A DNA stretch of 60,874 bases, from UHGV virus genome UHGV-0342847. One strand, written 5' to 3'. Numbering within the stretch: the stretch's first letter is position 1; every line of letters begins with the position of its first letter. The translations under genes and the position numbers were made by a program. The stretch comes from a virus. Positions 19,434 through 51,009 of this stretch are shown one piece after another. Below the pieces are notes generated by a model. It made no database searches and was not told the DNA's origin. It saw only the letters and a list, made by a program, of their open reading frames with translations.

Positions 19434-20502
19434 ACCACTGGCTTACATCATCGACCTGGACGGCACGCTGTACGATAACAGTCATCGCCAGCACCTGATA
19501 CCGGCAGACCGCAGCAATACCGCTGGCTGGGTGGAATTTAACTGCGCATGTACCGACGACGTGCTGCGCGAGGATATGGCTGACCTGGTTCGCAGCGTCA
19601 TGCTTTCTGGTCGTGAAGTAATTTTCCTCACCGGCCGCGGTGAGGCAGCTGGCGAACAGACAATGCAGCGTCTGCTGAAAGACTTCAATTTCATTGAGCA
19701 GCCGACGCTGATCATGCGCCCGATGGACTGTCATACATCGGCTGCAGAGTTCAAACGCGATGCTGTAAAGCGCATACGGGATTCTAAACGTTGGGCAGGT
19801 TACGACTTGATCGCGCTGGAAGACGATCCTTCAATCGTGGAGGTGATGCGCGGCATTGGAGTCACCGTTCTGCATATCGATAGCAAGTGCTGCACCGTTG
19901 AGAAACCGCACCACAACGGCATGATGCAGCTTTCCAATGAGCTGGCAGACGCAAAATCAGCGCTGCGCCGCCTTAGCGCGTTTGCGCGTTCCCATGCTGG
20001 CGATATCCAGTACACCGGCGATCACCCTATCGCAGTTGCTGAAAAACTGGCTGGGCAGTCGTTCGGTAATGCCGAACAACTGGATACAGCCCCAGCGCAG
20101 TTCGAGTCACTATCCGGTGATAAATCTGTAAGCCAGCCTTGCAATTTTCCAATTGAAATGACGCCTGAAATGATGCGTGCCGTTCAGATTGGCAGTGAGC
20201 TTGGGGCGTACGCCGCCGCCAACTTGTCTGGTGCGTATGGATTATTTGCTGAGTTTTGGGATGTGGCCTGTCGAGCTGCTGGCAACTCTCCGGTAATTCC
20301 GGATGGTTGGATTAATTGCAGAGAGCGGATGCCAGAGGAAGGTCAGGAAATAATCGTCATGGATGTGACGCGAGGAGAAGTTCAGTCTGGGATGATTTAT
20401 CAAAATGGGCGCTTTGTAGATTTCAATGAAGAATCTTACGAGGTGAAAAGCCCATCGCACTGGATGCCACTGCCAGCAGCACCGCAGCAGGAGGTGGTAT
20501 GA
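19411..20502 (+). CDS. HAD-superfamily phosphatase-like N-domain fused to a C-terminal DUF551 domain
   Basis: YIIDLDGTLYD (HAD motif I). The C-terminus has GWINCRERMPEEGQEIIVMD...SHWMPLPAAP (DUF551). Confidence 0.5.
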   Translation: MRKGLVNKPLAYIIDLDGTLYDNSHRQHLIPADRSNTAGWVEFNCACTDDVLREDMADLVRSVMLSGREVIFLTGRGEAAGEQTMQRLLKDFNFIEQPTLIMRPMDCHTSAAEFKRDAVKRIRDSKRWAGYDLIALEDDPSIVEVMRGIGVTVLHIDSKCCTVEKPHHNGMMQLSNELADAKSALRRLSAFARSHAGDIQYTGDHPIAVAEKLAGQSFGNAEQLDTAPAQFESLSGDKSVSQPCNFPIEMTPEMMRAVQIGSELGAYAAANLSGAYGLFAEFWDVACRAAGNSPVIPDGWINCRERMPEEGQEIIVMDVTRGEVQSGMIYQNGRFVDFNEESYEVKSPSHWMPLPAAPQQEVV

Positions 20503-29121: not shown

Positions 29122-29150
29122 ATTATAGAACGGGTGTTTTTATTTCAACA
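29122..29150 (-). promoter_or_regulatory. candidate sigma70 promoter (TGTTGA-17-TATAAT) in front of the lysis cassette
   Basis: Seen on the minus strand immediately after the terminator below. Functional status unknown. Confidence 0.25.
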
Positions 29151-29154
29151 ACGC

Positions 29155-29177
29155 AAAAAACCCGGCACGTGGCCGGG
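29155..29177 (-). terminator. rho-independent terminator after the giant gene
   Basis: CCCGGC-acgtg-GCCGGG with T6 on the minus strand. Confidence 0.5.
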
Positions 29178-29287
29178 TATGGGCAGACTGTGACGATTAC
29201 GCCCTGCCCGCAGCGCTCATCGAGGTGAGCATGTCATTTGCTTCGCAGGTGAGCCGGATCGCACGCCAGCCCACCTGCGCATCGGCG

Positions 29288-32200
29288 CTAGTCGTAAATT
29301 CTGGGTGCTTGTTCCTCCAGAATTCGTTCGCGCAGCTTCCGATTGTAGCGCATTCCACCCGTCGCGCTCTCAGCATTTTGCGCACGCGTTTTCATGGAAC
29401 TCTTGATGCTCTTGCCTGTGATGGCCTGCTCTGGGTATTTCTCGTTGAACTTAGTGATTTCATCAACGATCTTATCTTTCGCAGTGTCATCGCCTTTCTT
29501 ATCGGCTTTCCAGTACCCATCCATGAGTTTAGAACGCTGGCGCAATATCGTTTGCTGCAGGTTGTAGCCAGCATTGTTGATATCGTACTGCTCTGCCAGT
29601 TTCGCCGGGGTGGAGCCAAGAGCCTGCCGGATAACGTCGCCGTAGCCAACATCATCAACGATCGTGTCGCCTTTCAGGTTCGTTGCACCTTCTGTGGCGT
29701 AACGGTAAGCCTTCATCGGATCCTTAACCGCTTTCGGCATCATCGTTTCAATGCCGCGGTAGGTTTCTCCCTGTTTCATGAGGTTGAAGCCACGGAAGAT
29801 ATTGCTGGCGATCGACGGCGTAGCCCCCAGCAGCTGAGACTGCCAGTATTCAAACTCGCTTTTCCCTTCCAGCTCTGTAGATGGGGAACGGAACCAGAGA
29901 TCGCGCATCCCCAAGGATTCAGACTGGCTGGTGCCGGTCACGTAACCCGGCACGCCATCGAGGATAATACCGGTCATCATCGGGCCAAGCGCTTCGACCA
30001 TGTTCTTTTTCAGCTCCTGCTCTGGGTCTTTGTCATCATCCATGAACATAGAGGCCAGGGCAAACACGATACCAGCTCCCCACGTTCCAGCCAGGCCAGC
30101 GCCAAGCATCATCATTCCTGTGATACCGGCCAACTGGATCCGCGCCTCTCTCTTCGCTGCCGGGCTATCTCCTTTCACCGACTGGTGAATATCGCGGAAC
30201 AGACGATACAGCATGTTGATCGAGTAGTTACGGAAGACCAGTGCCACCTTCATCATATCGTTGTGCATGACACGAGGACGGCTGTTGTTCTGGTAGTCGA
30301 AATGGGTTTTCCACGTCAGATCGTTAGCTGCTTCAATCGCTTTCTGGTGGCTAAGGCCTTTGGCGCGCGCCATACGGTACGCCATCAGCACAGTGACCTC
30401 GCGGTTGATGCGCTCTGTATGGTGGAATGCCCACGACGCAGCAGCCATCAGGCGAGTTTTCAGCGGGCTGTAGTCAATGCCAGTTTCGCCAATGCTCGCC
30501 AGGTCATGCGCCTGCGTACGGTCAATGATGCCGATATCATAAGCAGCCTGAATCGCCTTCTTCTCGTCGGCGGTCAGGTTTTTGCTTTCACCGATAGAGC
30601 CTTTACCACGCACCAAATCGGAAGATGCGCGGGCAAACTGATTAATTGCCCGGGTAAACCCTTTCGCCGTTCCGTCGTACGCAGCCATCACCGGAATACC
30701 AATCATCGGCGTCTGGGCAAGGTTTCTAATTGCCGTGATAGGTGACGCAGCCATGAACCAGAGGAATGCCGCGCTGGTGAGCTTAGTCGCAATCGATCCA
30801 CCTGTCGGGTTCATGATGTACTGGTGTCGTTTCTCCATTTCGTTGACAACCAGACCGTCGCGAACAGGATCCTTCGTCTTGCCAGCCTCTTCGCGGGCAG
30901 CGTCCAGAGCCTCTTCCATATCGAAGGTGTACTTCAGGCGCGCCAGTTGGTGTGCGCTATGGAACATCTGATTACCAAATGCCCGCAGCGCGTCAGCGTT
31001 GTACCCCTTGCGGCCAGTACGGTGGATACGGTTTTTACGGATGGAGAAATCCGGCAGGCTTTCCAGATAGCGCTGCCACACCTCATCCTTCACGGTTTCG
31101 GCGTTTGGCAGGTCAGCCAGAATGTCTTCGACGTCGGCCACAAAGTTAGCGTCTACTGCTTTGCGGGTCGTCATACTGTCGTCCAGCGCGCCAACCTGCA
31201 CCGTATATTTCGGGTTTTCGCGCATCAGCTGAGCAAATTCACGCTGTTCACGGGCAGATTCAAAGCGGCTGAATGACTCGACCTTTCCGGATTCCTTATC
31301 GCGCACGGTGACAAACAGGTTTCCGAAGCGAGCCAGCGGGAAGTATGGCCCCTGCAAGCGGTTCATTTCGAACTGCGTACGCAGTTGGGTGATACGTGCC
31401 TTACGGTTCCATGCTGTCTTCGTCTTGGCGATTTTCAGCTTTTTATCTGCTTCGGCCTGGGCATCTGCTTTCTCCTGCCCGGTCAGACCTTCATCAACGA
31501 TACGCTGCAGATCGGCGCGGTGCTCACGCTCAGCGCGTTTGATGCGCACGTTAATGGCCTTCTCCATGTTGCCCAGTAGGGTTTTCTCGTACTCGTTGGT
31601 GATTTCCGTATAGGCGTCACGAACTTCCTTGAAGATTTCCTGGCCTTCTCCGGACAGCTTCTTATAACGGGCGTTCAGATCACCCCATGCTGAATACCGG
31701 AGATCATCCTGTGCCGCTTTCGCCACCAGCTCCAGTTCTTGCTCGCTGCCAGCGGCAACGGTACGCAGAGCATCACGATCCCGGTCAGTCATCATCGGTT
31801 CAAACGATTCAGACGGGTCTACCTGGGAAATGGTGGCGTCGTGCATCAGATCCATCAGCTCGACGTTTTCAACCGGATGCAGTACGCGGTACTTCAGCCA
31901 TTTCTGCGCCGTTCCGTCAGTCTTCGAATGCCATTTGTTACGCATGGCGTCCATTGACTGCTTCAGAGACATGTATTTAACCAATGACAGGATGTTTTTT
32001 CCCAACTCCGTTACCAGCGGGCGAAGCGGCAACAGCCCCAGACCATGCTTCATTGAGTCAGTAATCTTGTCAGCAGGCAGGTTTTTGAGGCGATCCCACC
32101 AGGTGCGTACCTTCGCGTTGTCCTGCGCTTCGGTTGGGATGTTAGGGTCCGGCTCCATGCCAGAGCGCAGGGATTGCAGGTCTGGAGACTGATAGTCACC

Positions 32201-35200
32201 AAACTGATTAACCAGACCATACATATCATCGCCGGTGCGGTTGATAATCTGGTTGTTCACAAACTTGCCGTCACCGGCCAGAACGGAATCCAGAGCCTCC
32301 ATTACCGCGCTCGGGTCGTCGCCTTTGGCACCCAGGATAGAGCGGATTTTCGCGATGATCTGCTTCATCACTTCAACAGCGCGATCCACCCATGTTTTCG
32401 GTGCATCACCGCGGGCCTTACGCTCTGCGATGATACGCGCGCCGTTCTCCGCCCAGTATTCAGACGGGGAAGCGTACTGGTAATCGCCTGGCGGCAACTC
32501 TCCAGTAGCAAATGCCTGTCGAGCACGCTCCAACCCCTCTTTATCGCCGTACATACCAGCAACCAGATCCGCTAACAGGTGCTCGCGACGGGTATCCCCG
32601 GCGTCTGCATATTCCTGCATGCGAGCTTCAAGTGCCTGCGTCCACTCTTTTGCAATGGCTTCCTGCACGTTCCGCGGCAGCATGCGCTCCATGTGGTGCA
32701 TGATTTCGTGCGTTGCGGTATTGGCATCGGTCGTTCTTACCGGCGCACCATTACGGGCAAAATCGCTGAAGAGAGTAATCAAACGGTTAGGAACGTTGTA
32801 GTTACCGGCTGGCAGTGAATCCCCTCCGCGGGCCAGCTCGATGTTCAGTGAGTTAGCGATGTGCGGATACTGACGAACCAGCCACTGAGCCAACTGCGCC
32901 CCTTCTTTGCTGTATACCCCGCTAATTTCAGCAGCACGCAGGGTAGCAAGAACTTTCTCCTGGTTTGTGGTAGCTGTGCGGTTCTGGAATTCGATACGGG
33001 ATACCAATTCAGCAAATTTATCAGCCGGGATAGCTTGGCTTTCTTGCCCGCGCATACGGGTAAGAGCTGCAATATCGTCAGCAGATGCCTGGCGCTGGTC
33101 GTTCGTGAATGCCGGAAGTTGTTCTCCCTGCGGCTCACGGTACATCGTTTCGCTGATCTCGTAGTCCTTGTTGCGCCCTTTGTTGTCCACAAAGCCAAAG
33201 CGCTTATAGAACTCATTGAGACGCGACTTGTTACCGCCAAAGTCACTGGACGGTGACAGCGCTACAGTTTTTCCGTTGGCATCGGCCCAGTTGGTAATCT
33301 GCTGCATGATAGCCGTACCGGTTCCAAGATTTCTGGAATCAGATGGCAGTTCGATGCGTTGCAGTGTCACAACATTACCGGTTCCCGTGAGGCTGAGTTT
33401 CAACCCGGGATACTGTGCTTTCAGCTGGTCTGCAAACTCTCGTGTGGTTTGCTCACGACGGAAAGACGGCAGGTCGCTCATCTGCTGCTGGCGACCTTCA
33501 CGATCGCTAACAGACAGGTCTTCAATCTGGTCAAACAGATCGTTGATGCTGTTGGCATTGCTCAGGTCTTCCTGCTGGGTCTGCGGTGCCTGATAGTCCT
33601 CGCTGGTGTTCTTCTCCAGTACTAGGACGCGGGTATTAACCTGTGTACCGGCGCGTTCAAACGTGGATCGCGGCATCCAGATATCTGCTACCAGATGAAT
33701 ACCGTTCTCTTCGTTGTCGCGCATAAACTGGTTAAAACGCTGGTCAGCCAGACCACCGCGCGGCACCAGCGCCACGATGCGACCGCCTTCACGAAGGTGC
33801 TGCACTGCTTTCGATACGTGATCGTAGGCAGTTTTCCCACCCATGCCGTAAGGCGGGTTCATAACGATAGCGTCGTACTTGTTGGTGCGGTTCAGGTCTT
33901 CAAAGCGACTGTTAACGATACGTGCCACGCCATTCACCAGCGCAGCGCGCTGTGACAGGTTCAGGGAAGGTTCAACCATCGTCACGTCAGTCTGTGCAGG
34001 GAAGAAGCGAGCGATCGCGCCGTGACCAGCTGACGGCTCCAGCACTTTGTCGCCTGGCTTAATGCCAGCCCATTCTACCATCTTCATGCCCACCGGTTCC
34101 GGCGTGGCGTAATAGTCCACCCCTTCGCGGTTATCCCTGCTCTTACTGTTCTTCTGCTGGGCGTAGTAGTAGGACTTCGCCTTGTCGAACTCAGAGATCG
34201 TATTGCTGTCCCGCTGGTCTGCTGCCTTGCCGCCTTTCCCGTCAGACTTACTCGCAGTAATAGGTGCTGCATCCTGATAGGAATTGATGAAAGACTGCTT
34301 CAGAGCACGGGAATCCGGCCCCATGGCGAGGTTTTCAGCGGTAGATGCACGCTCTGCAAGTTTCGATGCGAACGCGCTGGCTTCCCACGCTGTGCCGGTT
34401 GTCATGTATCGGAAAATAGCGTCAGAAGCCTGGCCGGTGCGATAGATGCGCCCCTCAAGCTGGATCGCCTTCGTCGGCTGCGTCGGCAGGCCAAGGTTAA
34501 TCTCTACGCGCTGGTGCTTGCCGCTGGTGTCGTGAACGCTGACACCCTCACGCATAGCGTCAGACTGGGCAATCAGGATGTTCGGCCCTGTCAGATCGTC
34601 GTTGAACTTATCCGCATTCGCTCGGCGCTTAGACTTCGGCACCGTACCGTTAAAGGTCATCGCATTCGGGAACGCCGCCAGCAGGGTATTCAGTGCAGAG
34701 TCAAGCCCGCTGAAGTTAATGCGGAACAGTGGCCTTTGGAACAATTCACGGGCAACCTGGCGCAAAGCCGGATCCATATCCTTCAGAGATTCAGCAAACG
34801 GATTGAAGCCGCCGCCCTGGTTGTAGTCGTGAACTACCAGAACCTTACGGCCTAACGCGAGGTGTTGCTTAATGATCGGGATAGCGGCTCGGGCCTTCAT
34901 CGACTCCAGAAGGAACATTTTGCGCTGGTGGTCGAAGGTATCCATTACCGCACTGTAGATATTGCGGTACATGCCATTCTCGCCGCTGTTCAGGTACTCC
35001 AGAGCCTGATCAAGCTTCTTGCCCGCGGCATCGTCAATCAGGACGAATTTGCGGTCGTAGTCGAATGGAACATCGAGGGAACGGCCAATCAGAGCACCGG
35101 TATCTTTCAAATACTGGTTGAAGTTCTGCTCCATCAGCTCGGTGTTAACCTCAGCATCAGGGCGAGTCAGCCGGTTGTACCGCATGCGGTAGCCGAAATT

Positions 35201-38200
35201 CTGAATATAGAACATATCTCGCGGGTTGCCGCTGTTGTACCCGCCGCCGCTGCGGTCTTTGAAACGATCCGCTGGTGGCGTGTGGTGGAACAGGTAGCCT
35301 TCTGCGTAATCGGTATTCATGACGTACGCGAAAGGAGTGGCAGACATGAAGACGGTTTTCGGCAGGTTCTCCTGCTTCTCCCAGCGCGCATTCCATTTCG
35401 CACGCTCGCTTTTATACAGATCATTCCACTGCGCCAGCAGACGGTCATAACGCGCTGAACGCTTCTCGGCGGCATCGGTTTTGTTGTTTTCTGTAGCATC
35501 CTTGTCGCGGGCATGCTGTGCGGCCACCAGCTCAGCATACTGATCGCCATACTTCGCCTGCAGCCATGAAGAAAAGCCATCCGGATGACCAGTTAGCGCC
35601 CGGAACATGCGCAACTGCTCGGTAACGTCGCCGCTTTCGTTCTGCATCAGGCGGTGAGACTCATCAGGGATAACCAGGTCCCACTCACGCTGGGCCAGGA
35701 AATTATTCTGCCCAAGGTTTGCGTAGGTGGTGATCACAGGACCGCTGCCGCCATTGTCAGTGATACCGCTCAGCTGCTTCAGTGGCATATCCAGCCAGCC
35801 AGCTGATTTAACCCAGTCAGAGGCGATCTTGTCGGACGGGACAAGAATCAGGATGTTTTCGCGACCTGCGTTATGGAAGCGCTTAGCCACGCCAAGGCCT
35901 GACATGGTTTTACCCGTTCCGGTACCGTTGGTAATGACGATCCCGTTGTCTTTTTGGTGGCGCTGTTCCACTTTGACAACATCATCCTGCTGCGCAGACA
36001 GTAGCATAGGCAGAGAGGCGCGTACGCTATCAGCATCACCCCACTTAGTTTCTTTCGGCGCTTTCTTCTGCGCTGCTAAACGTTGAGCGAACTCCCCGGC
36101 TCCAGCGGCGTGAGCATTTGCAGTAACTGCTGCTGCTCGGCTTCGCTCAGTTGATAGTCCTGCTTCGCTACGCCCAGCGCTTCCGGTGCGGATATCACTT
36201 CCGGACACGCCTTGCGAAGGTCGGAATTGCCCGTCTTCTCGATGTACGCGCTGATCGCCTGGTTCTCCGCGAGTAGCGGCCCCATCGTCTGATACGCGTT
36301 GATCACGCTGTCCGGTGTCCCGTTCTTCGTTAACGCGTCGGCCTGCTGTTGCAGGGCGCTGTCCATCTGTTCCTGATCCATTGCCATCAGCGCTTTCATT
36401 GACGGGTTTTGCATTTCCGGCTGCTGCGCTATCTGGTTCCAGACCTGTGCGGGGAGTTGATACATTAGGCACCTCGTTATCGAACTGTGACACCATATCA
36501 TCCATTGCGCCGATTGCCCGGGATGGTTGACGGGTGCTTGATTTTTGCGCTTCATCCTGCTGTGCGGCTGGCGCGTTTGGTTGATCGTTGCTTGCTGCTG
36601 GCTGCTCATTCAGTTTCGCCAGCTCGCTGCGCACGGTTTCCGCGGTATCCATCCCCTCGATACTGACACCGCTATCCTCCATCATATCGCGGGCACCGTT
36701 ATACCAGCTGCGCAGGTACGGACGAACACGGTTAAGCGGCAGGTCGAGATCGTTCGCCATCGCTTTCGCGAAATCGGCAAATTTACGGACACCGGCCTCA
36801 ATGTGGAACACGGCCAACTCGGTACCGATCGCCAGAATCTCCGGGTCAATACCGCTATTCAGCTGGGAGAATTTAGCCTTCAGGCGCTGGCGCAGCTCTG
36901 CCGCACGATCCTGAGATACCAGTTTGTTGTTGGCTCCGTACTCCGCTGATTTGGCTGCTTCCTGCGGCTGCTCAGTCACCTGGCTGGCATCGTAACCCTT
37001 TTTCCACGCATCAAACTCGGCCTTACCCTCTTGGGTGGATCTAGATGGAATACCCAGCGTTGCACGCACGCTAGTAATGAAACCTGTGCGTTCTTCCTTG
37101 CCGACAAATTTCAAACGGTCAGATAGCTCGCTTTCAACCTGCGCTACCGTCTTACCGTCAGCAAACAGCCTTTCAATGTCCAAAGTCAAACCCGCTTTAT
37201 CCGCACGATCACGATCTTGCTGTGCGTTCTGGTTTACCCAGCTCTGCTCATCTTTCCCAACGGTGACGCGAGGCGTCTCTCTGGTTTCAGGAATATTTTC
37301 AGGAATATTTTGTTGTTCGTTTTGTCGTGCTGATGCTGAGCGATTTTTTGCAGTCGGGCCTTCAGGATCGCCAAACAACAAGCTATTAACGGTATCCTGG
37401 TCTGATTGAGACATTCGGTTAGGGTCAATGGCTTTCAGTAGGGTAGCATTCCAGTCATTCCCAGTTTCCTGAGCCTCTTTTACTGCTTCCTCATACATCC
37501 AGTTGTTCAGACGCTTCGTGCTGTTGCTTAGTTTCTGAGGGCCAGTAGTGTCAATCTTAGGTGCGGGTGATAATTTACGCCCACTCATACTGTAAAGCTG
37601 TTCACCGGACTCGACCACTCCATCACGCGGCGGCTTACGTTCGTTTCGTTGTTCTTGCTGAGGAGATGTTTTGGTTTCCGCAACAGTCTCTGCAGTAGAT
37701 TGAGCAACTGGCTCAGTCTTATTCCACGTCACATTACGGGAACGGCCAGATTCCATTTCGGCAACAGAAAGCGTGGTGCTGCTTCCGGTTTCCTGGTTGG
37801 TGAGGTGGATCGTTCCGTTTTTATCGATGCCGTTGATCTTGTACTTGCCACCAGCCTTCGCATAGCCGACATCACCAGACGGTGACACGATATTTCCCTC
37901 TGCACCGACAACCTTACGGGCGCGGTTAACGCGTGGGCTTTCCTTCTTCCCTTTCGGCAGTTTAGGTGCTTCTGCTTTGGCACCCTCATTCGTGAGGGTA
38001 CCAGACGTTTCCGCCAGCGCTGGTTGTTCAACCTTGTGGATCTCGAAACGATTAGGCTTCACCTGTACCGCGTCGTAACCATCCAGCTTGCGGCGATCGA
38101 TAAAGGCCTTTGCCTTCTCCTGGGTAGAGAACCATTTCGGCTTGCCGTCACCGCCGATCAGTGCAGGGCTGGCGTCGGCGGTTGCAGTGTCACCAGAAAC

Positions 38201-41200
38201 AGTAGCTCGTCCACCGGCAGCAGGCTGGTCGGCAACACCCGCGTCATTTCGTTCACCGGATCCAGCAACTCGGCTTTCATCTGGTTGTACTGCAGTTGTG
38301 ATATCAGGATCTGCCTGCGCAGGAGTTTCAGCGCCTGCAGGCTGCTCATTTCTCTGTTCCTGTTGAATTGCCGCATTCTGTGAACCTCTCTGTTTAAGGC
38401 CAGCAATAGCGTTTTTATCAATAACAGCGTATTCGGTGCGCCCACGCGGGTCAGTGCCCACGACAACGCCGTAACCTTTCGATAGCAGATCGTTGATAGT
38501 GTTCTCTGACAGGCGGGTGATATCACCTTCCTTACGGAAAACCTTTGTTCCAGGCTTGATATTGACGTCGTAAACCGTTGGCGTTCCGCCCATCATCCCG
38601 GCGTAACCTTCAGCCTGTGCCGCGTCCTCCGCCCGGGTGCCGTAGAAACCACCATAAACGCGACCTTTCTTGCCTTGCTTCTGGCCTTCAGGACGGATGA
38701 TCTGGATATCATCGGCAGTGAGGTTAGGGTTTCCGGATCCATGAACGATGGTCATGCCTTCGTTGCCTACGGTTTCCCCGTCACTTTCACTATTCCCTCG
38801 GTTCAGGAACTCTGCTGATTTGTCGTTGAGCCTTTTTGACTCTGCCGTCTCTTCGGCTGTGCGGTTGCTCTTGTTCAGCAATTCTTTCAGGCGCAGGGAT
38901 TCCGTTTTGGTCAGGCCAAAATCATCGACTGCGTTACCGCTTTCCCGGTCTTTTACTTTGGCGTTAAGCGCTTTTTCCACCTGGCGGCGTGCATCCATCA
39001 GACGCTTATCCATCCCGCCGTTCTGTTTTGCCTGCTGCGCAATATAACGCATCCGGCCGCGCAGCTCGTCTTCACTCAGATCGGTAAGTGGGCGCTCCTG
39101 CGGCACGTCGATTTCGCGCACAGCTGGCTTGCCATCGATGATTTCACCAGTAGCAGGGTCAACGGTCATGCCGTCATCGGTAGCCTGCTGCTGGATTTCC
39201 GGCTGCGCTGCAGGCTGTTCTTCCTGCACTGGTGCGGCGGCTTGCTCAGTCTGAGGCAGGTTAATGTCGATATCATCAGGAGTGACGGTGTACGGCGTGC
39301 CGGTTCCGTCGCGAACGGTAACACTGCCGTCATTCTCGTAACGGTCAATGGTGACGTCCATCGCGGTAGACGGGTCGCCTTTTGCCTGAATGTTGATGGC
39401 GTTTCCAGGTTCTCCCGCCCAGAGATTGCCGTTTGCCGCTGTTGGTTGATCAGCCGTTCCACGCACTGCTCGCTCAAGCGGTCCAGCATCATCCGACAGG
39501 CCACTATCGTCACGCGGAGGTGTTGGTGCAGCATCCGTGGCCGCATCCTGCATCTGTGCTTCCGGATCTGTAGGCGCAACTTGTACAGGAGTGGTTTCTG
39601 CTGGCGTAGCATCCTGTTGCTGGCTAACGCGAGGGGCAGCAAGCCCCATTCCTGCCCCCATCATCCCACCAAGAGCAGCGCCGCCAGCTACCTGGTTAGC
39701 TACGCCCTTCATCAGAGGCGTGCTCGGGTCAGCTTCCTGCATGGCATAGTTCTGCCCCATCTGCTGGAATGCGCTTTGCGGGGCTTCTTCAAACAGGCCT
39801 TCACCTATAGCGCCGGTAAGGGCAGACTTCAGGCGACCACCAGCATTCCCAGTGATGATTTTCGCCATAGCGCGATCGCCCATGCCGCCGAAAATACCGG
39901 TACCGACACCGGCCAGCAGGAAAGCTTTCGACGCGGCGTTTTCTGCCAACTCTGAACGGGCTTGTTCAAACGTCTTGCCGCCGTCCATAAGAGATTTAAG
40001 CGCCTGGCTGTCTTTCAACTGGTCAGGCGTCATCTGGTTGATCTGCTCACGCGTTTCGCGGGCAGACTGCGCACCACCTAAACCACCTTCCAGAATGCCA
40101 CCAGCAACGGTAGCAGTACGGGCAGCAGCCTTTGCTGCCACCTCACGTGAAGCACCACTCGCAATAGCTCTTTTATAGGCCATAGACGCAAGGCGACCAG
40201 ATCCGCCCATCGTTACCGCCATTTCTGGCAGTGATTCAAGGATTCCGGACATATACGCACGAGGATCCGACCACGCCGGGCCGAAACTGTAGCCAGTGGC
40301 TTTCTTGCCGCCGCCGATATCATCACCAGGCTCGACCACCCACGCCTTTTTGCGGGCAGCGGCAAGCTCAGGCGAGTAGGATTTCTCAGTGGATTTGTCC
40401 CACTCTTTGAAAATTTCCTCAGAGCTTTTCCCATTTGCCCAGCGGTCAAAGCGATCGGCAGCATTGACGATTGGCTTACCGATCAGCGGTACACGGCTTA
40501 CCAGCTCCTTTGTATCCTTTGCGGCAATGTTCACACCGGATTGTAGGAGGTTCATCACGTCAGCGCCCATTTCCAGCGCGTCGTCCATGATCCCCTGTTG
40601 TTTGGCGGTCTGCGCCTGCTGCTTCTGCTCTTCCTGTGCCATATGCTCAGGAATGGATACGGGCTGAGTAATAGCCTTCACATCCTGCTGTAACTGGTTA
40701 GCCTTGCCGATTACGTCACTTTCCTGCTGCTGTACCTGTGCCATTTCAGAGGCGGTCAGCGGTCGGTAACGACCAGGCTCTTCGGCGTTAAGTTGATCGA
40801 GAACGTTTTGTGTTTCGATAGCACGAGCACGGAGATCGTTCTGCTCCATGTTCTCCATAGCACTCTGCGCTGCCGGGTATTCAGCTGCAAAATCACGCTG
40901 CGTCTGTGCTGGCTGCTTGATCTGCCCCTGCGTACCATCAAAGAAGGTCTGCGCCTTGTTAAGGACGTCAACACCGTACTGGCGGGTTTTTGGCCCCCAC
41001 TGTTTGCGGTCATCACCGCCGAAATGCGCGGATATCGCTTCCTGAATGGAATAGCCTTTATCGAGGCGCTGCTTCAGCTGCTTAGCTGCGGCGTCAATCG
41101 CCTGGCGTGGATCGTACGGGTTAATGCCCATCCCGGCAGCGGTAGAGTCGAGATACTGCATCAGGCCTTTGGCTCTGCCCCATTTGGTACGTTGCCCCAG

Positions 41201-41431
41201 CGCGGTAGGGTTGAAACTGGATTCCTGTTGCGCGAGCGCCATCAGTACGTTCACCGGAACACCGTATTTCTGCGATGCACTGGCAAAGTCTGACTGGAAC
41301 GGCACGTTGCCTGGTTCAAATGTGACCTGTTGGCGTCCTTCCTGTGACTTCTGGAATGACTCTGGCAAACCGAAAGACGGCGCTTTTGCCAGCGCCGCTT
41401 CAATTGGTGACGGAAGAGTATCTCGTGCCAC
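29288..41431 (-). CDS. giant (4047 aa) multi-domain virion/ejection 'polyvalent' protein: SLT lytic transglycosylase + SF2 helicase + N6-adenine methyltransferase + GNAT + HExxH peptidase-like + C-terminal membrane segments
   Basis: SLT AQQESSFNP...GLMQYLDSTAAGMGINPY (about 40950-41315). Helicase GTGTGKT / DESH / SAT / QLEGRIYRTGQ (about 34400-35930). MTase VLEPSAGHGAI + NPPYG (about 33700-34130). GNAT RNLGTGTAIM...FYKRFGF (about 33150-33420). HEIMHH (about 32683-32725). Hydrophobic C-terminal segments (about 29700-30750). Confidence 0.85.
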   Translation of the reverse strand: MARDTLPSPIEAALAKAPSFGLPESFQKSQEGRQQVTFEPGNVPFQSDFASASQKYGVPVNVLMALAQQESSFNPTALGQRTKWGRAKGLMQYLDSTAAGMGINPYDPRQAIDAAAKQLKQRLDKGYSIQEAISAHFGGDDRKQWGPKTRQYGVDVLNKAQTFFDGTQGQIKQPAQTQRDFAAEYPAAQSAMENMEQNDLRARAIETQNVLDQLNAEEPGRYRPLTASEMAQVQQQESDVIGKANQLQQDVKAITQPVSIPEHMAQEEQKQQAQTAKQQGIMDDALEMGADVMNLLQSGVNIAAKDTKELVSRVPLIGKPIVNAADRFDRWANGKSSEEIFKEWDKSTEKSYSPELAAARKKAWVVEPGDDIGGGKKATGYSFGPAWSDPRAYMSGILESLPEMAVTMGGSGRLASMAYKRAIASGASREVAAKAAARTATVAGGILEGGLGGAQSARETREQINQMTPDQLKDSQALKSLMDGGKTFEQARSELAENAASKAFLLAGVGTGIFGGMGDRAMAKIITGNAGGRLKSALTGAIGEGLFEEAPQSAFQQMGQNYAMQEADPSTPLMKGVANQVAGGAALGGMMGAGMGLAAPRVSQQQDATPAETTPVQVAPTDPEAQMQDAATDAAPTPPRDDSGLSDDAGPLERAVRGTADQPTAANGNLWAGEPGNAINIQAKGDPSTAMDVTIDRYENDGSVTVRDGTGTPYTVTPDDIDINLPQTEQAAAPVQEEQPAAQPEIQQQATDDGMTVDPATGEIIDGKPAVREIDVPQERPLTDLSEDELRGRMRYIAQQAKQNGGMDKRLMDARRQVEKALNAKVKDRESGNAVDDFGLTKTESLRLKELLNKSNRTAEETAESKRLNDKSAEFLNRGNSESDGETVGNEGMTIVHGSGNPNLTADDIQIIRPEGQKQGKKGRVYGGFYGTRAEDAAQAEGYAGMMGGTPTVYDVNIKPGTKVFRKEGDITRLSENTINDLLSKGYGVVVGTDPRGRTEYAVIDKNAIAGLKQRGSQNAAIQQEQRNEQPAGAETPAQADPDITTAVQPDESRVAGSGERNDAGVADQPAAGGRATVSGDTATADASPALIGGDGKPKWFSTQEKAKAFIDRRKLDGYDAVQVKPNRFEIHKVEQPALAETSGTLTNEGAKAEAPKLPKGKKESPRVNRARKVVGAEGNIVSPSGDVGYAKAGGKYKINGIDKNGTIHLTNQETGSSTTLSVAEMESGRSRNVTWNKTEPVAQSTAETVAETKTSPQQEQRNERKPPRDGVVESGEQLYSMSGRKLSPAPKIDTTGPQKLSNSTKRLNNWMYEEAVKEAQETGNDWNATLLKAIDPNRMSQSDQDTVNSLLFGDPEGPTAKNRSASARQNEQQNIPENIPETRETPRVTVGKDEQSWVNQNAQQDRDRADKAGLTLDIERLFADGKTVAQVESELSDRLKFVGKEERTGFITSVRATLGIPSRSTQEGKAEFDAWKKGYDASQVTEQPQEAAKSAEYGANNKLVSQDRAAELRQRLKAKFSQLNSGIDPEILAIGTELAVFHIEAGVRKFADFAKAMANDLDLPLNRVRPYLRSWYNGARDMMEDSGVSIEGMDTAETVRSELAKLNEQPAASNDQPNAPAAQQDEAQKSSTRQPSRAIGAMDDMVSQFDNEVPNVSTPRTGLEPDSAAAGNAKPVNESADGNGSGTDGQRPATAGRRVNEERDTGQRDQRVSDDGAATRGEPGDQRVHREDGQFRPSQGVSGSDIRTGSAGRSEAGLSTERSRAAAVTANAHAAGAGEFAQRLAAQKKAPKETKWGDADSVRASLPMLLSAQQDDVVKVEQRHQKDNGIVITNGTGTGKTMSGLGVAKRFHNAGRENILILVPSDKIASDWVKSAGWLDMPLKQLSGITDNGGSGPVITTYANLGQNNFLAQREWDLVIPDESHRLMQNESGDVTEQLRMFRALTGHPDGFSSWLQAKYGDQYAELVAAQHARDKDATENNKTDAAEKRSARYDRLLAQWNDLYKSERAKWNARWEKQENLPKTVFMSATPFAYVMNTDYAEGYLFHHTPPADRFKDRSGGGYNSGNPRDMFYIQNFGYRMRYNRLTRPDAEVNTELMEQNFNQYLKDTGALIGRSLDVPFDYDRKFVLIDDAAGKKLDQALEYLNSGENGMYRNIYSAVMDTFDHQRKMFLLESMKARAAIPIIKQHLALGRKVLVVHDYNQGGGFNPFAESLKDMDPALRQVARELFQRPLFRINFSGLDSALNTLLAAFPNAMTFNGTVPKSKRRANADKFNDDLTGPNILIAQSDAMREGVSVHDTSGKHQRVEINLGLPTQPTKAIQLEGRIYRTGQASDAIFRYMTTGTAWEASAFASKLAERASTAENLAMGPDSRALKQSFINSYQDAAPITASKSDGKGGKAADQRDSNTISEFDKAKSYYYAQQKNSKSRDNREGVDYYATPEPVGMKMVEWAGIKPGDKVLEPSAGHGAIARFFPAQTDVTMVEPSLNLSQRAALVNGVARIVNSRFEDLNRTNKYDAIVMNPPYGMGGKTAYDHVSKAVQHLREGGRIVALVPRGGLADQRFNQFMRDNEENGIHLVADIWMPRSTFERAGTQVNTRVLVLEKNTSEDYQAPQTQQEDLSNANSINDLFDQIEDLSVSDREGRQQQMSDLPSFRREQTTREFADQLKAQYPGLKLSLTGTGNVVTLQRIELPSDSRNLGTGTAIMQQITNWADANGKTVALSPSSDFGGNKSRLNEFYKRFGFVDNKGRNKDYEISETMYREPQGEQLPAFTNDQRQASADDIAALTRMRGQESQAIPADKFAELVSRIEFQNRTATTNQEKVLATLRAAEISGVYSKEGAQLAQWLVRQYPHIANSLNIELARGGDSLPAGNYNVPNRLITLFSDFARNGAPVRTTDANTATHEIMHHMERMLPRNVQEAIAKEWTQALEARMQEYADAGDTRREHLLADLVAGMYGDKEGLERARQAFATGELPPGDYQYASPSEYWAENGARIIAERKARGDAPKTWVDRAVEVMKQIIAKIRSILGAKGDDPSAVMEALDSVLAGDGKFVNNQIINRTGDDMYGLVNQFGDYQSPDLQSLRSGMEPDPNIPTEAQDNAKVRTWWDRLKNLPADKITDSMKHGLGLLPLRPLVTELGKNILSLVKYMSLKQSMDAMRNKWHSKTDGTAQKWLKYRVLHPVENVELMDLMHDATISQVDPSESFEPMMTDRDRDALRTVAAGSEQELELVAKAAQDDLRYSAWGDLNARYKKLSGEGQEIFKEVRDAYTEITNEYEKTLLGNMEKAINVRIKRAEREHRADLQRIVDEGLTGQEKADAQAEADKKLKIAKTKTAWNRKARITQLRTQFEMNRLQGPYFPLARFGNLFVTVRDKESGKVESFSRFESAREQREFAQLMRENPKYTVQVGALDDSMTTRKAVDANFVADVEDILADLPNAETVKDEVWQRYLESLPDFSIRKNRIHRTGRKGYNADALRAFGNQMFHSAHQLARLKYTFDMEEALDAAREEAGKTKDPVRDGLVVNEMEKRHQYIMNPTGGSIATKLTSAAFLWFMAASPITAIRNLAQTPMIGIPVMAAYDGTAKGFTRAINQFARASSDLVRGKGSIGESKNLTADEKKAIQAAYDIGIIDRTQAHDLASIGETGIDYSPLKTRLMAAASWAFHHTERINREVTVLMAYRMARAKGLSHQKAIEAANDLTWKTHFDYQNNSRPRVMHNDMMKVALVFRNYSINMLYRLFRDIHQSVKGDSPAAKREARIQLAGITGMMMLGAGLAGTWGAGIVFALASMFMDDDKDPEQELKKNMVEALGPMMTGIILDGVPGYVTGTSQSESLGMRDLWFRSPSTELEGKSEFEYWQSQLLGATPSIASNIFRGFNLMKQGETYRGIETMMPKAVKDPMKAYRYATEGATNLKGDTIVDDVGYGDVIRQALGSTPAKLAEQYDINNAGYNLQQTILRQRSKLMDGYWKADKKGDDTAKDKIVDEITKFNEKYPEQAITGKSIKSSMKTRAQNAESATGGMRYNRKLRERILEEQAPRIYD

Positions 41432-41440
41432 GGTATATCC

Positions 41441-42598
41441 TCAACGTGAAATAATTTGTCCGGTTCGGGTATCGAGATACATCAATCCGCTGCCGCCTTG
41501 CGGTTGTGATTGCTGTTGTCCTGGTAGACCGATTCCCTGCTGTTCATTGATGAGTCTATCACGCATCTTAATAGCGTCTAACGCCTGTTTGGTTTGTTCT
41601 TGAGGCGACAGCTTTTTCCATTCTTTATCGGTGAAGTCTTCTGAGCGAGACTTGATATAATCATCGAGACGCTTGGACATAGGTGCTGACTGGTTTTGCA
41701 CGCCGATAAGAGCCGGGGCCAGCGCTTTAATCTGCGACTCTGGAACGCCACGAGAGCGCAGGTAATCCTCCGCTGCCTTTGCATCCTGCACCTTTTTATT
41801 TCCCGATCCACCTTCAGCTGATTTTTCTGCACGGCGCAGCTGGCTTTCGTTGTTCTGTCCTTCGAGTTTGTAATTCTGGTCAATTTCCTTTTCGGTGAGC
41901 TTACGCTGCCAGTCACGCTGCTCTTTTGCAGACTCAGCGGTAATCTTCTGTCCCGACTTCAGCTGGTCAATGCCGTACTCAAAGACGTTTTTCGGATCAC
42001 CGAACTGCATGGCGGTCTTGTAAATATCATCCATGCTGTTGAAACTATGCGTTGTCTCTTTGCCGGTCTTATCGTTCTTCAGGGTAATATCCCAACCAGC
42101 GGCATTCCCGTCCTTGTCACGGCGAACATCGGCCTTAACAGCGGTCATGCCATCCTCAAAATAGCCAGGCTGGTTGTACAGTTTGACCATGTTATCCATT
42201 ACGGCATCGGGATTTCCCATTTGCGCCGCACGGATCATTCCAACACCGTATTTCATGCCCTGCTGTACGTTGGTGTCCTGAATCCACTTCCCGAAGGCGT
42301 TGGCCTTGTCCATATCGCCTTGCGACAGCCAGTATTGCTGAAGTTTCGGCGCGGTGTTCTGCATGTAGTAGTTCATAACGTTATCGATTTGCCCGTCAGT
42401 TTTTGCAGCGGCTTCATCAGCACCCTGCGCTGCGAGATCGATAGCGCCCTGTTTTGACTTGTTTTCGCGATCCAGTTCGTTAACCCTCATATCCGTCAAC
42501 TTCTGACGGCTGCGAGCGTTCTGGATGTTTGCGTAAGCGTCAGCGCCCTGGGCCACACCAGACAGGAATGAACCAAGCCCGATACCGAAATTTGCCAT
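41441..42598 (-). CDS. internal virion/ejection protein (Gly-rich N-terminus)
   Basis: MANFGIGLGSFLSGVAQG N-terminus, paralogous to the next gene. Position is upstream of the giant gene. Confidence 0.45.
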   Translation of the reverse strand: MANFGIGLGSFLSGVAQGADAYANIQNARSRQKLTDMRVNELDRENKSKQGAIDLAAQGADEAAAKTDGQIDNVMNYYMQNTAPKLQQYWLSQGDMDKANAFGKWIQDTNVQQGMKYGVGMIRAAQMGNPDAVMDNMVKLYNQPGYFEDGMTAVKADVRRDKDGNAAGWDITLKNDKTGKETTHSFNSMDDIYKTAMQFGDPKNVFEYGIDQLKSGQKITAESAKEQRDWQRKLTEKEIDQNYKLEGQNNESQLRRAEKSAEGGSGNKKVQDAKAAEDYLRSRGVPESQIKALAPALIGVQNQSAPMSKRLDDYIKSRSEDFTDKEWKKLSPQEQTKQALDAIKMRDRLINEQQGIGLPGQQQSQPQGGSGLMYLDTRTGQIISR

Positions 42599-42607
42599 GA
42601 TGACCCC

Positions 42608-42964
42608 TTAGAAAAAGCTGGCAATGGTTCCCCAGTTGCCTGAGTTATTGGTTGCAGTCTTCGCCTGCGGAGAGCTGGGCATCACCTGGCTCTGTGTCGG
42701 GTTGTAACCCATGCCAATACCGGCATTACTACCCAGATCGTCAAAACTGCTTTGTGGTGGCATTTGCCCGGGTAAGTCCATTGAACCAGGCTGAGCTGCT
42801 GCATTCTGGATAGCCGTGCCAGAACCAACGCCTCCACCAGAGCCGTTCTTCGCTGCCATATTCTCCAACGCATCGGACATTTTCTTATTTCGGTCCATGC
42901 TCATACCCAACTGCATGCCGCCAGATACACCTTCAAGAAACGAACCTAATCCCATACCAGCCAT
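42608..42964 (-). CDS. small Gly-rich internal virion protein
   Basis: MAGMGLGSFLEGVSGG... low complexity. Confidence 0.4.
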   Translation of the reverse strand: MAGMGLGSFLEGVSGGMQLGMSMDRNKKMSDALENMAAKNGSGGGVGSGTAIQNAAAQPGSMDLPGQMPPQSSFDDLGSNAGIGMGYNPTQSQVMPSSPQAKTATNNSGNWGTIASFF

Positions 42965-43209: not shown

Positions 43210-44187
43210 TTAGGAAGAGAACGCCATCAGGCCCATACCGGCCAGCGAACCAATGCCACCCCACAAGCTTGATGAAGACTGGTTCTTCATTTGCTGCTGG
43301 GCCAGATTGTTCTGGAATTGCTGGTTCAGGATATTAGCCTGCTGACCATAGCCATTCATCGCACCCTGGAAGCCGCTACCCATAATGTTGGCATTACCAG
43401 CTGCCTGCGCGTTGTTGCTGGCGGTCGTGCCGTATCCTGCTGATGCAGTGGATGAACTTAGCCCCAGCGAGGTGGCCGGGTTTACACCCAGACCAGATCC
43501 AAGGTTGATGGCGTCACCCTTCAGTGACATAGCCTGATTACGTACCGTGTTGCGCGCCTGGTTCTGTGCTCCTGCGGCAGCGAGAGTTGTCGCCCCCTCC
43601 GCTGCGCGGTCAACACCGGCATAACGCCCGCTGGTTGGATTAACGCCCATACTGGCCTGCTGACGCTGCGTTGCGGCGCGCTGCTGGCTGGCATTGGTCA
43701 GTACGTCGGCCTTTGCCTCAGCCGCCATCTGCTGCTGTCGTTCTGGGCTATCCCAGTTGTTCGCCTTATCAATAAATTCGTCCTGGAGAGGGACAAACGT
43801 ATTTTGATAGCGGTCACGGTCGGAGGTGGCCCATTCCTGCGCCTGTTTGCTGGCGTCGAGCTGCTGCTGAGTGACCGCGTTAGCGAGCTTGTCCTGTTCC
43901 TTCTGTCGCTCATTGGCGACAGCGAACTGCTCATTGGCGAATTTTAGCCAGTCCTCGCCGGTCTGTGCAGTTTTCAGGGCTGCAATGCCTATATTAGGAT
44001 CTGATTGCACATTGGTGCTGCTACCCTTTTTGAACATGACGTTCTTTTCCCATTCAGCCTCTTCGGGCTTCTCTGGTTTTGGTAGAGCATCACCGATAGC
44101 TGCCAGAGCCGTATCTGGCAGCTGCGGCCACAACGTCATAACCATGATTAACATCATGGTGAGCATGAGTGGGATCTCATTTTGCAT
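43210..44187 (-). CDS. internal virion/ejection protein with N-terminal TM segment
   Basis: N-terminal hydrophobic helix, Gln/Ala-rich body and Gly-rich C-terminus. Confidence 0.45.
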   Translation of the reverse strand: MQNEIPLMLTMMLIMVMTLWPQLPDTALAAIGDALPKPEKPEEAEWEKNVMFKKGSSTNVQSDPNIGIAALKTAQTGEDWLKFANEQFAVANERQKEQDKLANAVTQQQLDASKQAQEWATSDRDRYQNTFVPLQDEFIDKANNWDSPERQQQMAAEAKADVLTNASQQRAATQRQQASMGVNPTSGRYAGVDRAAEGATTLAAAGAQNQARNTVRNQAMSLKGDAINLGSGLGVNPATSLGLSSSTASAGYGTTASNNAQAAGNANIMGSGFQGAMNGYGQQANILNQQFQNNLAQQQMKNQSSSSLWGGIGSLAGMGLMAFSS

Positions 44188-44647
44188 CGTGTTTCCTCCG
44201 GTATTTCTTCTGGATTTCGATAAATCGCTCTCTCAGCATGCCAAGGATGATTAAATCATCGTCTGGCAGTGCCTGCCTGAGATATCCCTCGCGCTCGAAC
44301 CCAAGATGCAGATCAAACCGAAGGGCTTTCTCATTTTTTGCTGGCACCAGGCCGGTCACACGGCGAAGGTTCCACACCACAAAAGGCTGGTAAAAACTCA
44401 TGTTGAGGTAGGTTCGTGAGAACCAGTGACCGGTTAGATCACTGGCAATATGGATGTTGCAGTCACACTCAGAAAACCCGTCATAGAGCGTGACTGCGTG
44501 AATACCTTTCTCGCTAACCAGACCAATGCACTTTGCATCAGGACGCGGCTTGAAATGTATTCTCTCCGCTGCCCATGCGATCAGCTCATCGCTGTGACCT
44601 ACTATCTGTCTCACAATGCAATCCTCATGTTGCCCTTTCGACAACAT
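44177..44647 (-). CDS. GNAT-like acetyltransferase-fold protein within the virion module
   Basis: LRRVTGLVPAKNEKALRFDLHLGFEREG resembles GNAT motif A and the acetyl-CoA binding region. Confidence 0.4.
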   Translation of the reverse strand: MLSKGQHEDCIVRQIVGHSDELIAWAAERIHFKPRPDAKCIGLVSEKGIHAVTLYDGFSECDCNIHIASDLTGHWFSRTYLNMSFYQPFVVWNLRRVTGLVPAKNEKALRFDLHLGFEREGYLRQALPDDDLIILGMLRERFIEIQKKYRRKHDAK

Positions 44648-50984: not shown

Positions 50985-51008
50985 AACCCCGCCGAAGCGG
51001 GGTTTTTT
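50985..51008 (-). terminator. bidirectional intrinsic terminator between the two tailspike genes
   Basis: AACCCCGC-cgaa-GCGGGGTT with T-runs on both strands. Confidence 0.45.
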
Positions 51009-51009
51009 A

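Follow-up and report, generated by a model that had tools for sequence, protein, structure and literature searches.

We analyzed the virus genome UHGV-0342847, a DNA stretch of 60,874 nucleotides (hereafter, the window) that comprises the whole genome of a temperate podophage of ~61 kb with an integrase, and concentrated on its giant open reading frame (ORF) at 29288..41431 on the minus strand. The giant protein encoded there is probably an internal-virion (ejection) polyvalent protein of a temperate podophage of the Bcep22/PEp14/Parlo/Lastavirus type, which would be ejected together with the DNA and serve in anti-defense. An earlier note on this DNA had proposed an injected ejection and anti-defense polyvalent protein, and as an interpretation this proposal is supported by synteny, by virion mass spectrometry of the homologue JC1 gp69, by cysteine avoidance, and by the polyvalent-protein literature. 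The analysis established the ORF, the identities of its domains (by sequence and by fold), the lack of cysteine, the synteny, and the exchange of modules. Packaging has been demonstrated by mass spectrometry only for the homologue JC1 gp69 in another phage; for the giant protein, timing, injection, cleavage, and enzyme targets are inferred.

The giant ORF comprised 4047 codons (12.1 kb) and was translated without an internal stop, in agreement with the single ORF of 4047 amino acids (aa) described previously. Its GTG start is preceded by a GAGGA ribosome-binding site at 8 bases and by the stop codon of the upstream gene at 10 bases. The motifs that the earlier note had read from the sequence were all present at definite positions of the translation: AQQESSFNP at aa 67, GTGTGKT at 1836, DESH at 1923, SAT at 2030, QLEGRIYRTGQ at 2324, VLEPSAGHGAI at 2463, NPPYG at 2525, RNLGTGTAIM at 2700, FYKRFGF at 2741, and HEIMHH at 2908. 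The unusual size of the gene, ~20% of the genome length, would be in keeping with an assembly or annotation artefact that fused several genes. However, 12.1 kb passed without a stop codon, the base composition of the gene was the same as that of the flanking DNA, and collinear full-length homologues of 3764–4936 aa occurred in isolated phages and metagenomes, among them ZX1, Parlo, and metagenomic relatives; this idea was therefore rejected, and we consider its chance negligible. An identical giant protein was not found in the assemblies index, near-identical DNA was not found in complete E. coli genomes, and DNA similarity to the giant gene in the phage collection was confined to 1.6 kb of the helicase (72–73% identity).

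The giant protein contained no cysteine among its 4047 aa, whereas cysteine made up 0.99% of the other window proteins (P ~3e-18). Its homologues in Klebsiella phage vB_KpnP_ZX1 (ZX1) and Serratia phage Parlo were also free of cysteine, and in 149 related giant proteins the cysteine content was 0.0185%, with none at all in 100 of the 149. The three genes directly upstream (325, 118, and 385 aa) encoded no cysteine either; with the giant gene, they make up a new run of four neighboring genes free of cysteine, suggestive of an ejection operon. Cysteine suppression has been published for the ejection operon of N4-like phages and was explained by passage through the oxidizing periplasm (PMC11445570). 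T7 gp15 and gp16 each had no cysteine, and P1 DarB had nine. The absence of cysteine is the strongest argument at the sequence level that the giant protein and its three neighbors would be ejected.

The location of the gene was examined by comparison with related phages. On the minus strand, the order was portal, scaffold-like protein, major capsid protein, tail and tail-spike genes, internal virion protein, small GNAT gene, three small virion proteins, and giant gene, with an endolysin, two holins, and a spanin downstream. The gene order around the giant gene was the same in ZX1 (a Lastavirus), in Parlo, and in the metagenomic contig L004, which encodes a 90%-identical C-terminal fragment of the giant protein; the window and all three shared the layout of small GNAT gene, two or three virion proteins, giant gene, endolysin, holins, and spanin. 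This synteny fits the ejection-protein position that had been claimed for the gene. None of the three small upstream proteins had a Pfam family match, and the 118-aa protein (42608..42964) had no family match at all. The 385-aa and 118-aa proteins start with near-identical Gly-rich N termini (MANFGIGLGSFLSGV and MAGMGLGSFLEGV; pattern MAxxGxGLGSFL), and the 325-aa protein (43210-44187) has a Gln/Ala/Asn-rich body behind its N-terminal transmembrane helix.

At the N terminus of the giant protein, the SLT lytic transglycosylase recognized earlier was confirmed by its Pfam match (Table 1) and by the N terminus of T7 gp16, of which aa 7–142 aligned with giant-protein aa 42–195 (29% identity, E 7e-7). 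Behind it, a low-complexity Gln/Ala/Gly-rich region of ~1500 aa had been described. This description was only partly right: a mild compositional bias was present (aa 150–1800: A 12.8%, G 9.6%, Q 7.0%, a moderate enrichment), but the hydrophobic-poor linkers totaled only ~520 aa (601–680, 1001–1100, 1241–1300, 1361–1420, and 1581–1800), and the rest was conserved, with 57–80% identity to metagenomic relatives and 52% identity to ZX1 over aa 1–1260. The giant gene and protein had no tandem repeats of note. In view of this conservation and lack of repeats, we rejected the idea of an N-terminal ~1500-aa stretch that serves as nothing but low-complexity filler. The Gly/Ala-rich N-terminal block matched phrog_938 over aa 246–773 and was conserved in ZX1, Parlo, and the relatives P0019, P0020, and P0028. 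Pfam scans of separate segments (ten in all) gave nothing for aa 150–1800.

Hidden inside this supposed low-complexity region was a new, divergent ART-PolyVal-like domain, as judged by profile–profile comparison. In hhalign against a 51-sequence ART-PolyVal family, the seed of which was confirmed as PF18760, it reached a probability of 94.3% (E 1e-7; 111 columns; template 14–143 of 151). It was this comparison with the larger family, and no other, that provided the link to ART-PolyVal: the domain had no direct Pfam match, a small ART-like alignment against a single ART protein was not significant, a plain hidden Markov model of ART-PolyVal domains scored aa 870–1045 at 6.7 bits (no match at realistic database size), and a PDB sequence search with the ART-like profile gave no meaningful match. 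Of the H-Y-D triad, the His was present, whereas the Asp column was devoid of acidic residues; the missing Asp might be replaced by a TE(Y/H) close by, which looks invariant. The domain was present in the window protein, ZX1, and P0020 and not in P0019. Small "stand-alone" ART-like homologues were rejected as independent genes, since they look like frameshifted fragments of giant genes.

The middle of the protein contained the previously claimed superfamily 2 (SF2) helicase, which was substantiated by a Pfam ResIII match (E 2.5e-10) with the motifs in place. Its assignment as an SF2, SWI2/SNF2-related, Strawberry-notch-like enzyme follows from the ResIII match together with sub-threshold matches to Helicase_C_4 (Strawberry notch C-terminal; 24.1 bits against a cut-off of 30.5) and weak ones to Helicase_C and SNF2. 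Strawberry-notch-like helicases are rare in polyvalent proteins, and SWI2/SNF2 enzymes translocate on double-stranded DNA (PMC5512222). For the gamma-type N6-adenine methyltransferase, also claimed before, the segment scanned alone matched MTS (30.5 bits) and N6_Mtase (26.1 bits), both above the cut-off, and aligned with the P1 DarB methyltransferase (E 6e-7); the gamma class is correct because motif I precedes motif IV. A PDB sequence search with the helicase–methyltransferase segment gave no meaningful match.

The GNAT motif reported earlier was upheld through motifs A and B and through at least 13 homologues of the 110-aa segment at 45–61% identity, most of them with precomputed PF13508/PF00583, its own score being sub-threshold. 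When homologues were scanned directly, P0014 passed (28.5 bits) and P0018 did not (20.6); such homologues often stand beside ART-PolyVal, MuF, or LPD domains. The domain fits the "gammaproteobacterial (pro)phage" family among the GNATs of polyvalent proteins, whose members usually have an ART domain as a neighbor (PMC5512222). The phage has two GNATs, one inside the giant protein and one encoded by a free acyl-CoA N-acyltransferase (GNAT) gene in the structural operon (44177-44647, minus strand; four cysteines), which is conserved in ZX1 and Parlo.

To characterize the HEIMHH segment, for which a zincin had been proposed, an exhaustive HMMER search was performed, and 548 cluster representatives were found at E ≤ 1e-3; all 150 homologues listed sit in larger proteins, most of them >1000 aa. 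In the alignment of 150 sequences, H2908, E2909, and H2912 were invariant (150/150), as were E2991 (146/146) and E2915, and H2913, Y2878, and W2993 were nearly invariant. An AlphaFold model built from 26 sequences (pLDDT 85, pTM 0.72) predicted a three-stranded sheet packed on the active-site helices and followed by the HExxH helix, with both ligand sites in predicted helices (model residues 91–102 for HExxH and 175–192 for the downstream Glu). The invariant HExxH and Glu residues together with the confident, zincin-like model fold support the zincin call. The HExxH region itself had no Pfam match, none of 26 family members scanned had a peptidase model, the zincin profile matched no PDB sequence, and the zincin of P1 DdrB showed no significant similarity to that of the giant protein. 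By these searches, the module represents a new zincin family of >500 sequence clusters that is absent from curated libraries. It resembles the zincins PPEP-2/PPEP-3, anthrax lethal factor (ATLF-like), Wss1/Spartan (SprT-like), and the ArdC C-terminal domain in its three-stranded sheet, HExxH helix, and later helix with an invariant Glu, at only 12–17% sequence identity; its signature HE(I/V)(L/M)HHxERMxP ... SE(F/Y)WA and extra C-terminal helices are unlike known zincins. Among isolated phages, the only other carriers of the zincin were Pavtok, Stean, and PEp14, all Erwinia phages (33–35% identity).

The C-terminal part consisted of LPD39 and PLxRFG domains, which, like the ART-like domain, the earlier reader had not named. 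The PLxRFG match (NCBIfam NF032893) scored 756.9 bits against a cut-off of 100 and covered profile positions 1–680 of 681. The model of aa 3100–4047 (29291-32134, minus strand; pLDDT 84, pTM 0.79) was almost all helical, and fold searches with these 948 aa returned only generic helical hairpins and no specific solved match. Many polar residues of the LPD39–PLxRFG module are invariant, e.g., FHxxERxNRE around aa 3670–3680, and LPD39 is suspected to be enzymatic by Iyer et al. (PMC5512222). C-terminal hydrophobic helices had been claimed in the plural; by Kyte–Doolittle hydropathy one such segment, at aa 3774–3792, was found, and the plural was not supported. A second, weaker hydrophobic segment was the Gly/Ala-rich stretch at aa 581–599. 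The earlier note had also proposed that every segment be annotated by domain searches, and the SLT, helicase, methyltransferase, GNAT, and zincin calls all survived profile, homologue, or model tests.

Comparison of full-length relatives indicated that the ends of the protein are constant and its middle swappable, which is a new feature at the level of sequence. P0020 (4594 aa) shared aa 1 to ~1017 of the window protein and P0028 (4936 aa) aa 1 to ~830, and both also shared the C-terminal zincin-LPD39-PLxRFG part from ~2733–2775 to 4046 (57–65% identity over the shared parts); in the middle, they carried a different cassette, an Eco57I-type methylase followed by ResIII/Helicase_C, which is the order of DarB. 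The helicase-then-methylase cassette was found in the window protein, Parlo, ZX1, P0019, and Ruegeria phage 45A6. The Parlo giant protein lacked the zincin, and ZX1 had an unrelated module of ~210 aa in its place. The modules at the corresponding part of these two proteins measured ~210–240 aa and had no Pfam match: the one replacing the zincin occupies aa 2690–2925 of the ZX1 protein (L001 16215-16922), and the other lies just upstream of the Parlo GNAT at aa 2460–2700 (L002 15868-16590). Modules were also counted among the 149 zincin-bearing proteins by single-sequence phmmer with the window's own modules, a method of low sensitivity; by this count, the full module order, including the GNAT next to the zincin, occurred in one of the 149 (P0019, 72–80% identical). 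The GNAT–zincin adjacency thus counted is uncommon, yet it is made of standard mobile modules.

If the giant protein is an ejection protein, a few copies of it would be packed in the head, accompanied by the small cysteine-free products of the three genes directly ahead of its own. At infection, these proteins would be expelled unfolded through portal and tail into the envelope, where the N-terminal SLT would cut peptidoglycan, like T7 gp16. The Gly-rich and hydrophobic segments and the conserved zincin-LPD39-PLxRFG C terminus would build or anchor a conduit across the envelope. The exchangeable middle (ART-like domain, SF2 translocase–methylase, GNAT) would enter the cytoplasm along with the DNA and, ahead of any phage gene expression, target the incoming genome or proteins of the host. 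The translocase–methylase pair most likely protects the entering DNA in cis from restriction, by methylation or by shielding, and the most likely task of the zincin is to cleave the polyprotein into functional pieces.

Several points weigh against this reading. Injection, methylation, acetylation, proteolysis, and anti-restriction are inferred for the giant protein and its close relatives. The giant protein may be dispensable for self-protection by methylation, since the phage also has genes for two separate DNA methylases. The ART-like domain may be inactive, since the conserved Asp of the family is not kept, and the GNAT segment scored 20.9 bits for Acetyltransf_7, under the gathering cut-off of 27. 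Because there is a single convincing hydrophobic helix, a membrane-spanning role is weakly supported, and the conduit role of the C-terminal 948 aa, for which there is no solved structural relative, is a guess from position and conservation. The kinship with P1 DarB is distant, and the domain orders are opposite: LPD36–methyltransferase–SF2 helicase in DarB, as against helicase (1810–2370) and then methylase (2438–2630) in the giant protein.

Alternatively, the giant protein might be mainly a polyprotein precursor that its zincin cuts, during head maturation or after ejection, into independent SLT, effector, and PLxRFG pieces, the single ORF being a packaging or stoichiometry device. The invariance of the zincin catalytic residues, the occurrence of the module in hundreds of giant proteins, and the hydrophobic-poor linkers between conserved blocks all speak for such a precursor, as do the processing of P1 DdrB (with its MPTase domain) before packaging and the autoproteolysis that Iyer et al. 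propose for polyvalent proteins (PMC5512222). However, Parlo has no zincin and ZX1 has another module in its place, so cleavage by the zincin is not general. N4 vRNAP, ArdC, and TraC1 carry MPTase domains and yet are transferred uncleaved (PMC5512222), and the literature on the family, in its readable part, contains no cleavage data. We regard the precursor as a possibility worth keeping in mind, though not a probable one. The protein might instead have a structural role only, as part of the tail or as something like a tape measure that remains in the particle, with enzyme-like domains that are relics or act on the cell wall only. Such a role would agree with the place of the gene in the structural block, the long helical C-terminal region, and the labels "endolysin" and "structural" of the PHROG families for parts of the protein. 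Against it, helicase, methylase, GNAT, and zincin retain intact, conserved catalytic motifs, the substrates of these enzymes (ATP, S-adenosylmethionine, acetyl-CoA, DNA) are cytoplasmic, and the complete avoidance of cysteine points to passage through the periplasm; this explanation is very improbable.

The SF2 translocase could also be an ejection motor that, with the protein anchored in the envelope by both ends, pulls the genome in, in the way that T7 and N4-like phages use RNA polymerases, while the methylase marks the passing DNA. Within a cysteine-free ejection operon, the giant gene stands where T7 has gp16 and the Schitoviridae have the vRNAP, a motor role has been proposed for the giant ejection protein of phage DEV (PMC11445570), and the translocation of SWI2/SNF2 enzymes on double-stranded DNA noted above fits such a role. 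However, in the low-sensitivity phmmer counts, only 12 of the 149 zincin-bearing proteins also matched the helicase, and most of the 33 that matched PLxRFG had no helicase match. Moreover, close relatives bear a non-orthologous helicase cassette, which suggests that the helicase is exchangeable cargo rather than core machinery. We consider a motor unlikely. The same doubtful standing is given to a fuller version, in which the giant protein would be the gp16/vRNAP equivalent of a four-protein cysteine-free ejectosome, with constant ends as the anchor, the middle as a cargo bay, and the Strawberry-notch-like translocase reeling in the genome and methylating it. The anchor of this ejectosome would comprise the SLT and the Gly-rich block at the N terminus and zincin-LPD39-PLxRFG at the C terminus, the latter with a fold that, according to the model, lacks a solved relative. 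If true, in-cis protection would be coupled to a motor for DNA entry, a combination without parallel among characterized ejection systems.

Table 1. Positions of the giant ORF, its domains, and adjacent elements in the window.
Feature	Position	Strand	Details
Giant ORF, whole	29288..41431	-	4047 aa, GTG start, zero cysteine
SLT lytic transglycosylase domain	40982..41299	-	aa 45-150; catalytic Glu70 in ESSF, GLMQ at 89-92; Pfam PF01464, E 1.1e-14
Gly/Ala-rich N-terminal block	39632..40696	-	aa 246-600; glycine-zipper-like runs; ends in weakly hydrophobic 581-599 segment
Divergent ART-PolyVal-like domain	38399..38755	-	aa 893-1011; His897 kept; Asp of the family's G.DG replaced (GYG)
SF2 helicase/translocase (SWI2/SNF2-related, Strawberry-notch-like)	34322..36004	-	aa 1810-2370; motifs I GTGTGKT, II DESH, III SAT, VI QLEGRIYRTGQ
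Gamma-class N6-adenine DNA methyltransferase	33542..34120	-	aa 2438-2630; TP cap, motif I VLEPSAGHG, motif IV NPPY
Minimal GNAT acetyltransferase domain	33122..33451	-	aa 2661-2770; motif A RNLGTGTA at 2700, motif B FYKRFGF at 2741
Zincin-like metallopeptidase domain	32207..32989	-	aa 2815-3075; H2908, E2909, H2912, H2913, E2915; E2991 candidate third ligand
LPD39 domain	31466..32092	-	aa 3114-3322; long helical hairpins (AF2 model); PF18858, E 8.6e-56, 189 bits vs cut-off 27
PLxRFG domain	29330..31351	-	aa 3361-4034, PLARFG at 3365; mostly helical; no solved relative
Transmembrane-like segment	30056..30112	-	aa 3774-3792, MMLGAGLAGTWGAGIVFAL; Kyte-Doolittle 1.59; only clear one
385-aa virion protein	41441..42598	-	phrog_9667 "virion structural protein"; no cysteine; Gly-rich N terminus MANFGIGLGSFL; candidate ejection partner
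118-aa protein	42608..42964	-	no cysteine; N terminus MAGMGLGSFL; candidate ejection partner
325-aa virion protein	43210..44187	-	phrog_8003; no cysteine; N-terminal transmembrane segment, hydropathy 1.72; candidate ejection partner
Terminator-like hairpin	29160..29178 (with T-run 29152..29178)	-	ACCCGGC-CACGT-GCCGGGT + TTTTTTG; between giant gene and endolysin
Promoter-like element	29122..29148	-	TTGAAA-15 nt-TATAAT; before endolysin gene; read directly from sequence

The giant gene had been said to be set apart from the lysis genes by a terminator of its own. The hairpin is present, with a 7-bp GC-rich stem and then six T's, 110 nt past the giant-gene stop codon, but it is not a distinctive feature of this gene. 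The contig L004 keeps the same hairpin (3577-3595 vs window 29160-29178), with the closing A-U pair changed to G-C on both sides (a compensatory change), and in ZX1 the corresponding site holds another hairpin; in Parlo, no such hairpin was found on that strand. The element seems simply to close the structural operon, as is usual in this phage group, and to be nothing peculiar to the giant gene. The spacer of the promoter-like element (15 nt) is below the 16–18 nt rule of the scan.

The window also encodes large and small terminase subunits, replication genes, and two stand-alone DNA methylases, whose genes lie in the early region (8931-10208 and 10909-11697, both minus strand). An HNH endonuclease gene (3300-3800, minus strand) overlaps the start of the small terminase gene, an arrangement that certain headful and cos packaging modules commonly show. 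A polynucleotide kinase-like gene (19411-20502, plus strand), located in the early region of this temperate phage, may have an RNA-repair or anti-defense function. The C-terminal part of the tail spike (50985-52400, within the ORF 51010-53511 on the minus strand) had 89–94% DNA identity to the tail spikes of the Salmonella Kuttervirus myophages pertopsoe, LPST94, and Se-B, and the rest of the genome had no close DNA relative. This match suggests a recent horizontal exchange of the receptor-binding module, and it makes Salmonella the probable host.

Giant polyvalent virion proteins take up a fifth of such phage genomes. To our knowledge, none of them has been studied functionally outside P1 DarB and the N4-type vRNAP; a literature search likewise found no functional test of family members reported outside P1 DarB. 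The current picture is unchanged by our example because the protein class, the position, and most of the domains had been described. Its value lies in the domain map, the zincin family of >500 clusters outside curated libraries, the case of constant ends with a swappable middle, and the four-gene cysteine signature, and it offers predictions for work on phage entry and anti-restriction.

The earlier note could match the GNAT plus zincin combination to no specific characterized protein; the protein is not unmatched, however. The protein belongs to an annotated family, phrog_10089 "DarB-like" (2083.7 bits) and NCBIfam PLxRFG, and such modules in polyvalent proteins were described computationally by Iyer et al. 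2017. By sequence, it is a fairly divergent member of an already described class of virion proteins of temperate podophages, with which the window phage shares its lifestyle, its ~61-kb genome, and its integrase. The Parlo protein (QBQ72230, 3764 aa; annotated "DarB-like antirestriction protein") and the ZX1 protein (QZE12048, 3867 aa; annotated "PLxRFG protein," Klebsiella Lastavirus) agreed with it in gene position, SLT, LPD39 and PLxRFG, and zero cysteine, and carried the same helicase–methyltransferase–GNAT block at 62–66% identity; overall, protein identity to giants of this type was 46–62%. The Parlo announcement lists transglycosylase, helicase, methyltransferase, and acyltransferase domains in its giant protein (PMC6606913), and the class was also described in the ZX1 paper (PMC9505181). 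In JC1, the 4515-aa homologue gp69 was detected with 51 unique peptides in CsCl-purified virions by mass spectrometry (PMC9144972). The family further includes members in Erwinia phage PEp14/Pavtok and the Burkholderia Bcep22-like phages (Bcep22 gp75, JC1 gp69). Virions of Bcep22 and BcepIL02 were reportedly studied by mass spectrometry by Gill et al. in 2011, as cited in the JC1 paper.

The polyvalent-protein concept of Iyer, Burroughs, Anand, de Souza, and Aravind (2017) covers LPD39, zincin MPTases, GNATs, ARTs, and the methylase–helicase dyad (PMC5512222). In accordance with it, the giant protein combined at least two unrelated effector domains (SLT, ART-like, SF2 helicase, methyltransferase, GNAT, zincin) with an LPD domain (LPD39), and its gene lay among late genes (portal, capsid, tail, internal virion genes, giant gene, lysis cassette). 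Like the proteins of that set, it has LPD39, an MPTase-type zincin, a methylase–helicase dyad, a GNAT, and ART-type and peptidoglycan-cleaving domains; unlike them, its zincin matches no Pfam model and its helicase is N-terminal to the methylase, not C-terminal. The paper of Iyer et al. contains no discussion of cysteine avoidance or of an ejection role for the conserved ends.

The analogy with P1 DarB (YP_006479, 2255 aa) drawn by the earlier note is loose. DarB is likewise virion-carried and combines a gamma-class adenine methylase (TP cap, xEPSAGxG, N-P/V-P-Y/F) with an SF2 ATPase. In BLASTP, the window methyltransferase aligned with DarB aa 88–297 (24% identity over 217 aa, E 6e-7; YATPEP with YYTPKP, LEPSAGHG with LEPSAGTG, NPPY with NVPF), so the methyltransferase domain is homologous, whereas the helicases gave only motif-level, non-significant matches (E 0.06–1.5) and the two domains come in reverse order. 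SLT, GNAT, zincin, LPD39, and PLxRFG are all absent from DarB, which belongs to a myovirus and whose packaging needs DarA, Hdf, DdrA, DdrB, and Ulx; no match to these five was noticed among the window ORFs scanned with PHROGs, where no systematic search for them was made. With the methylase as the only detectably homologous domain, the name "DarB-like" overstates the kinship.

The relation to T7 gp16 lies in the N-terminal SLT, which is homologous, and in the setting of the gene. No segment of the gp16 body other than the SLT matched the giant protein better than E 0.95; the window protein is three times longer, and DNA- and protein-modifying enzymes replace the gp16 body or the RNA polymerase. 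As in the gp14-gp15-gp16 run of T7 and the gp73-gp72-vRNAP run of Schitoviridae, the giant gene is the largest and last in a cysteine-free run of internal virion genes (PMC11445570), and a T7-type podophage likewise needs a trans-envelope channel.

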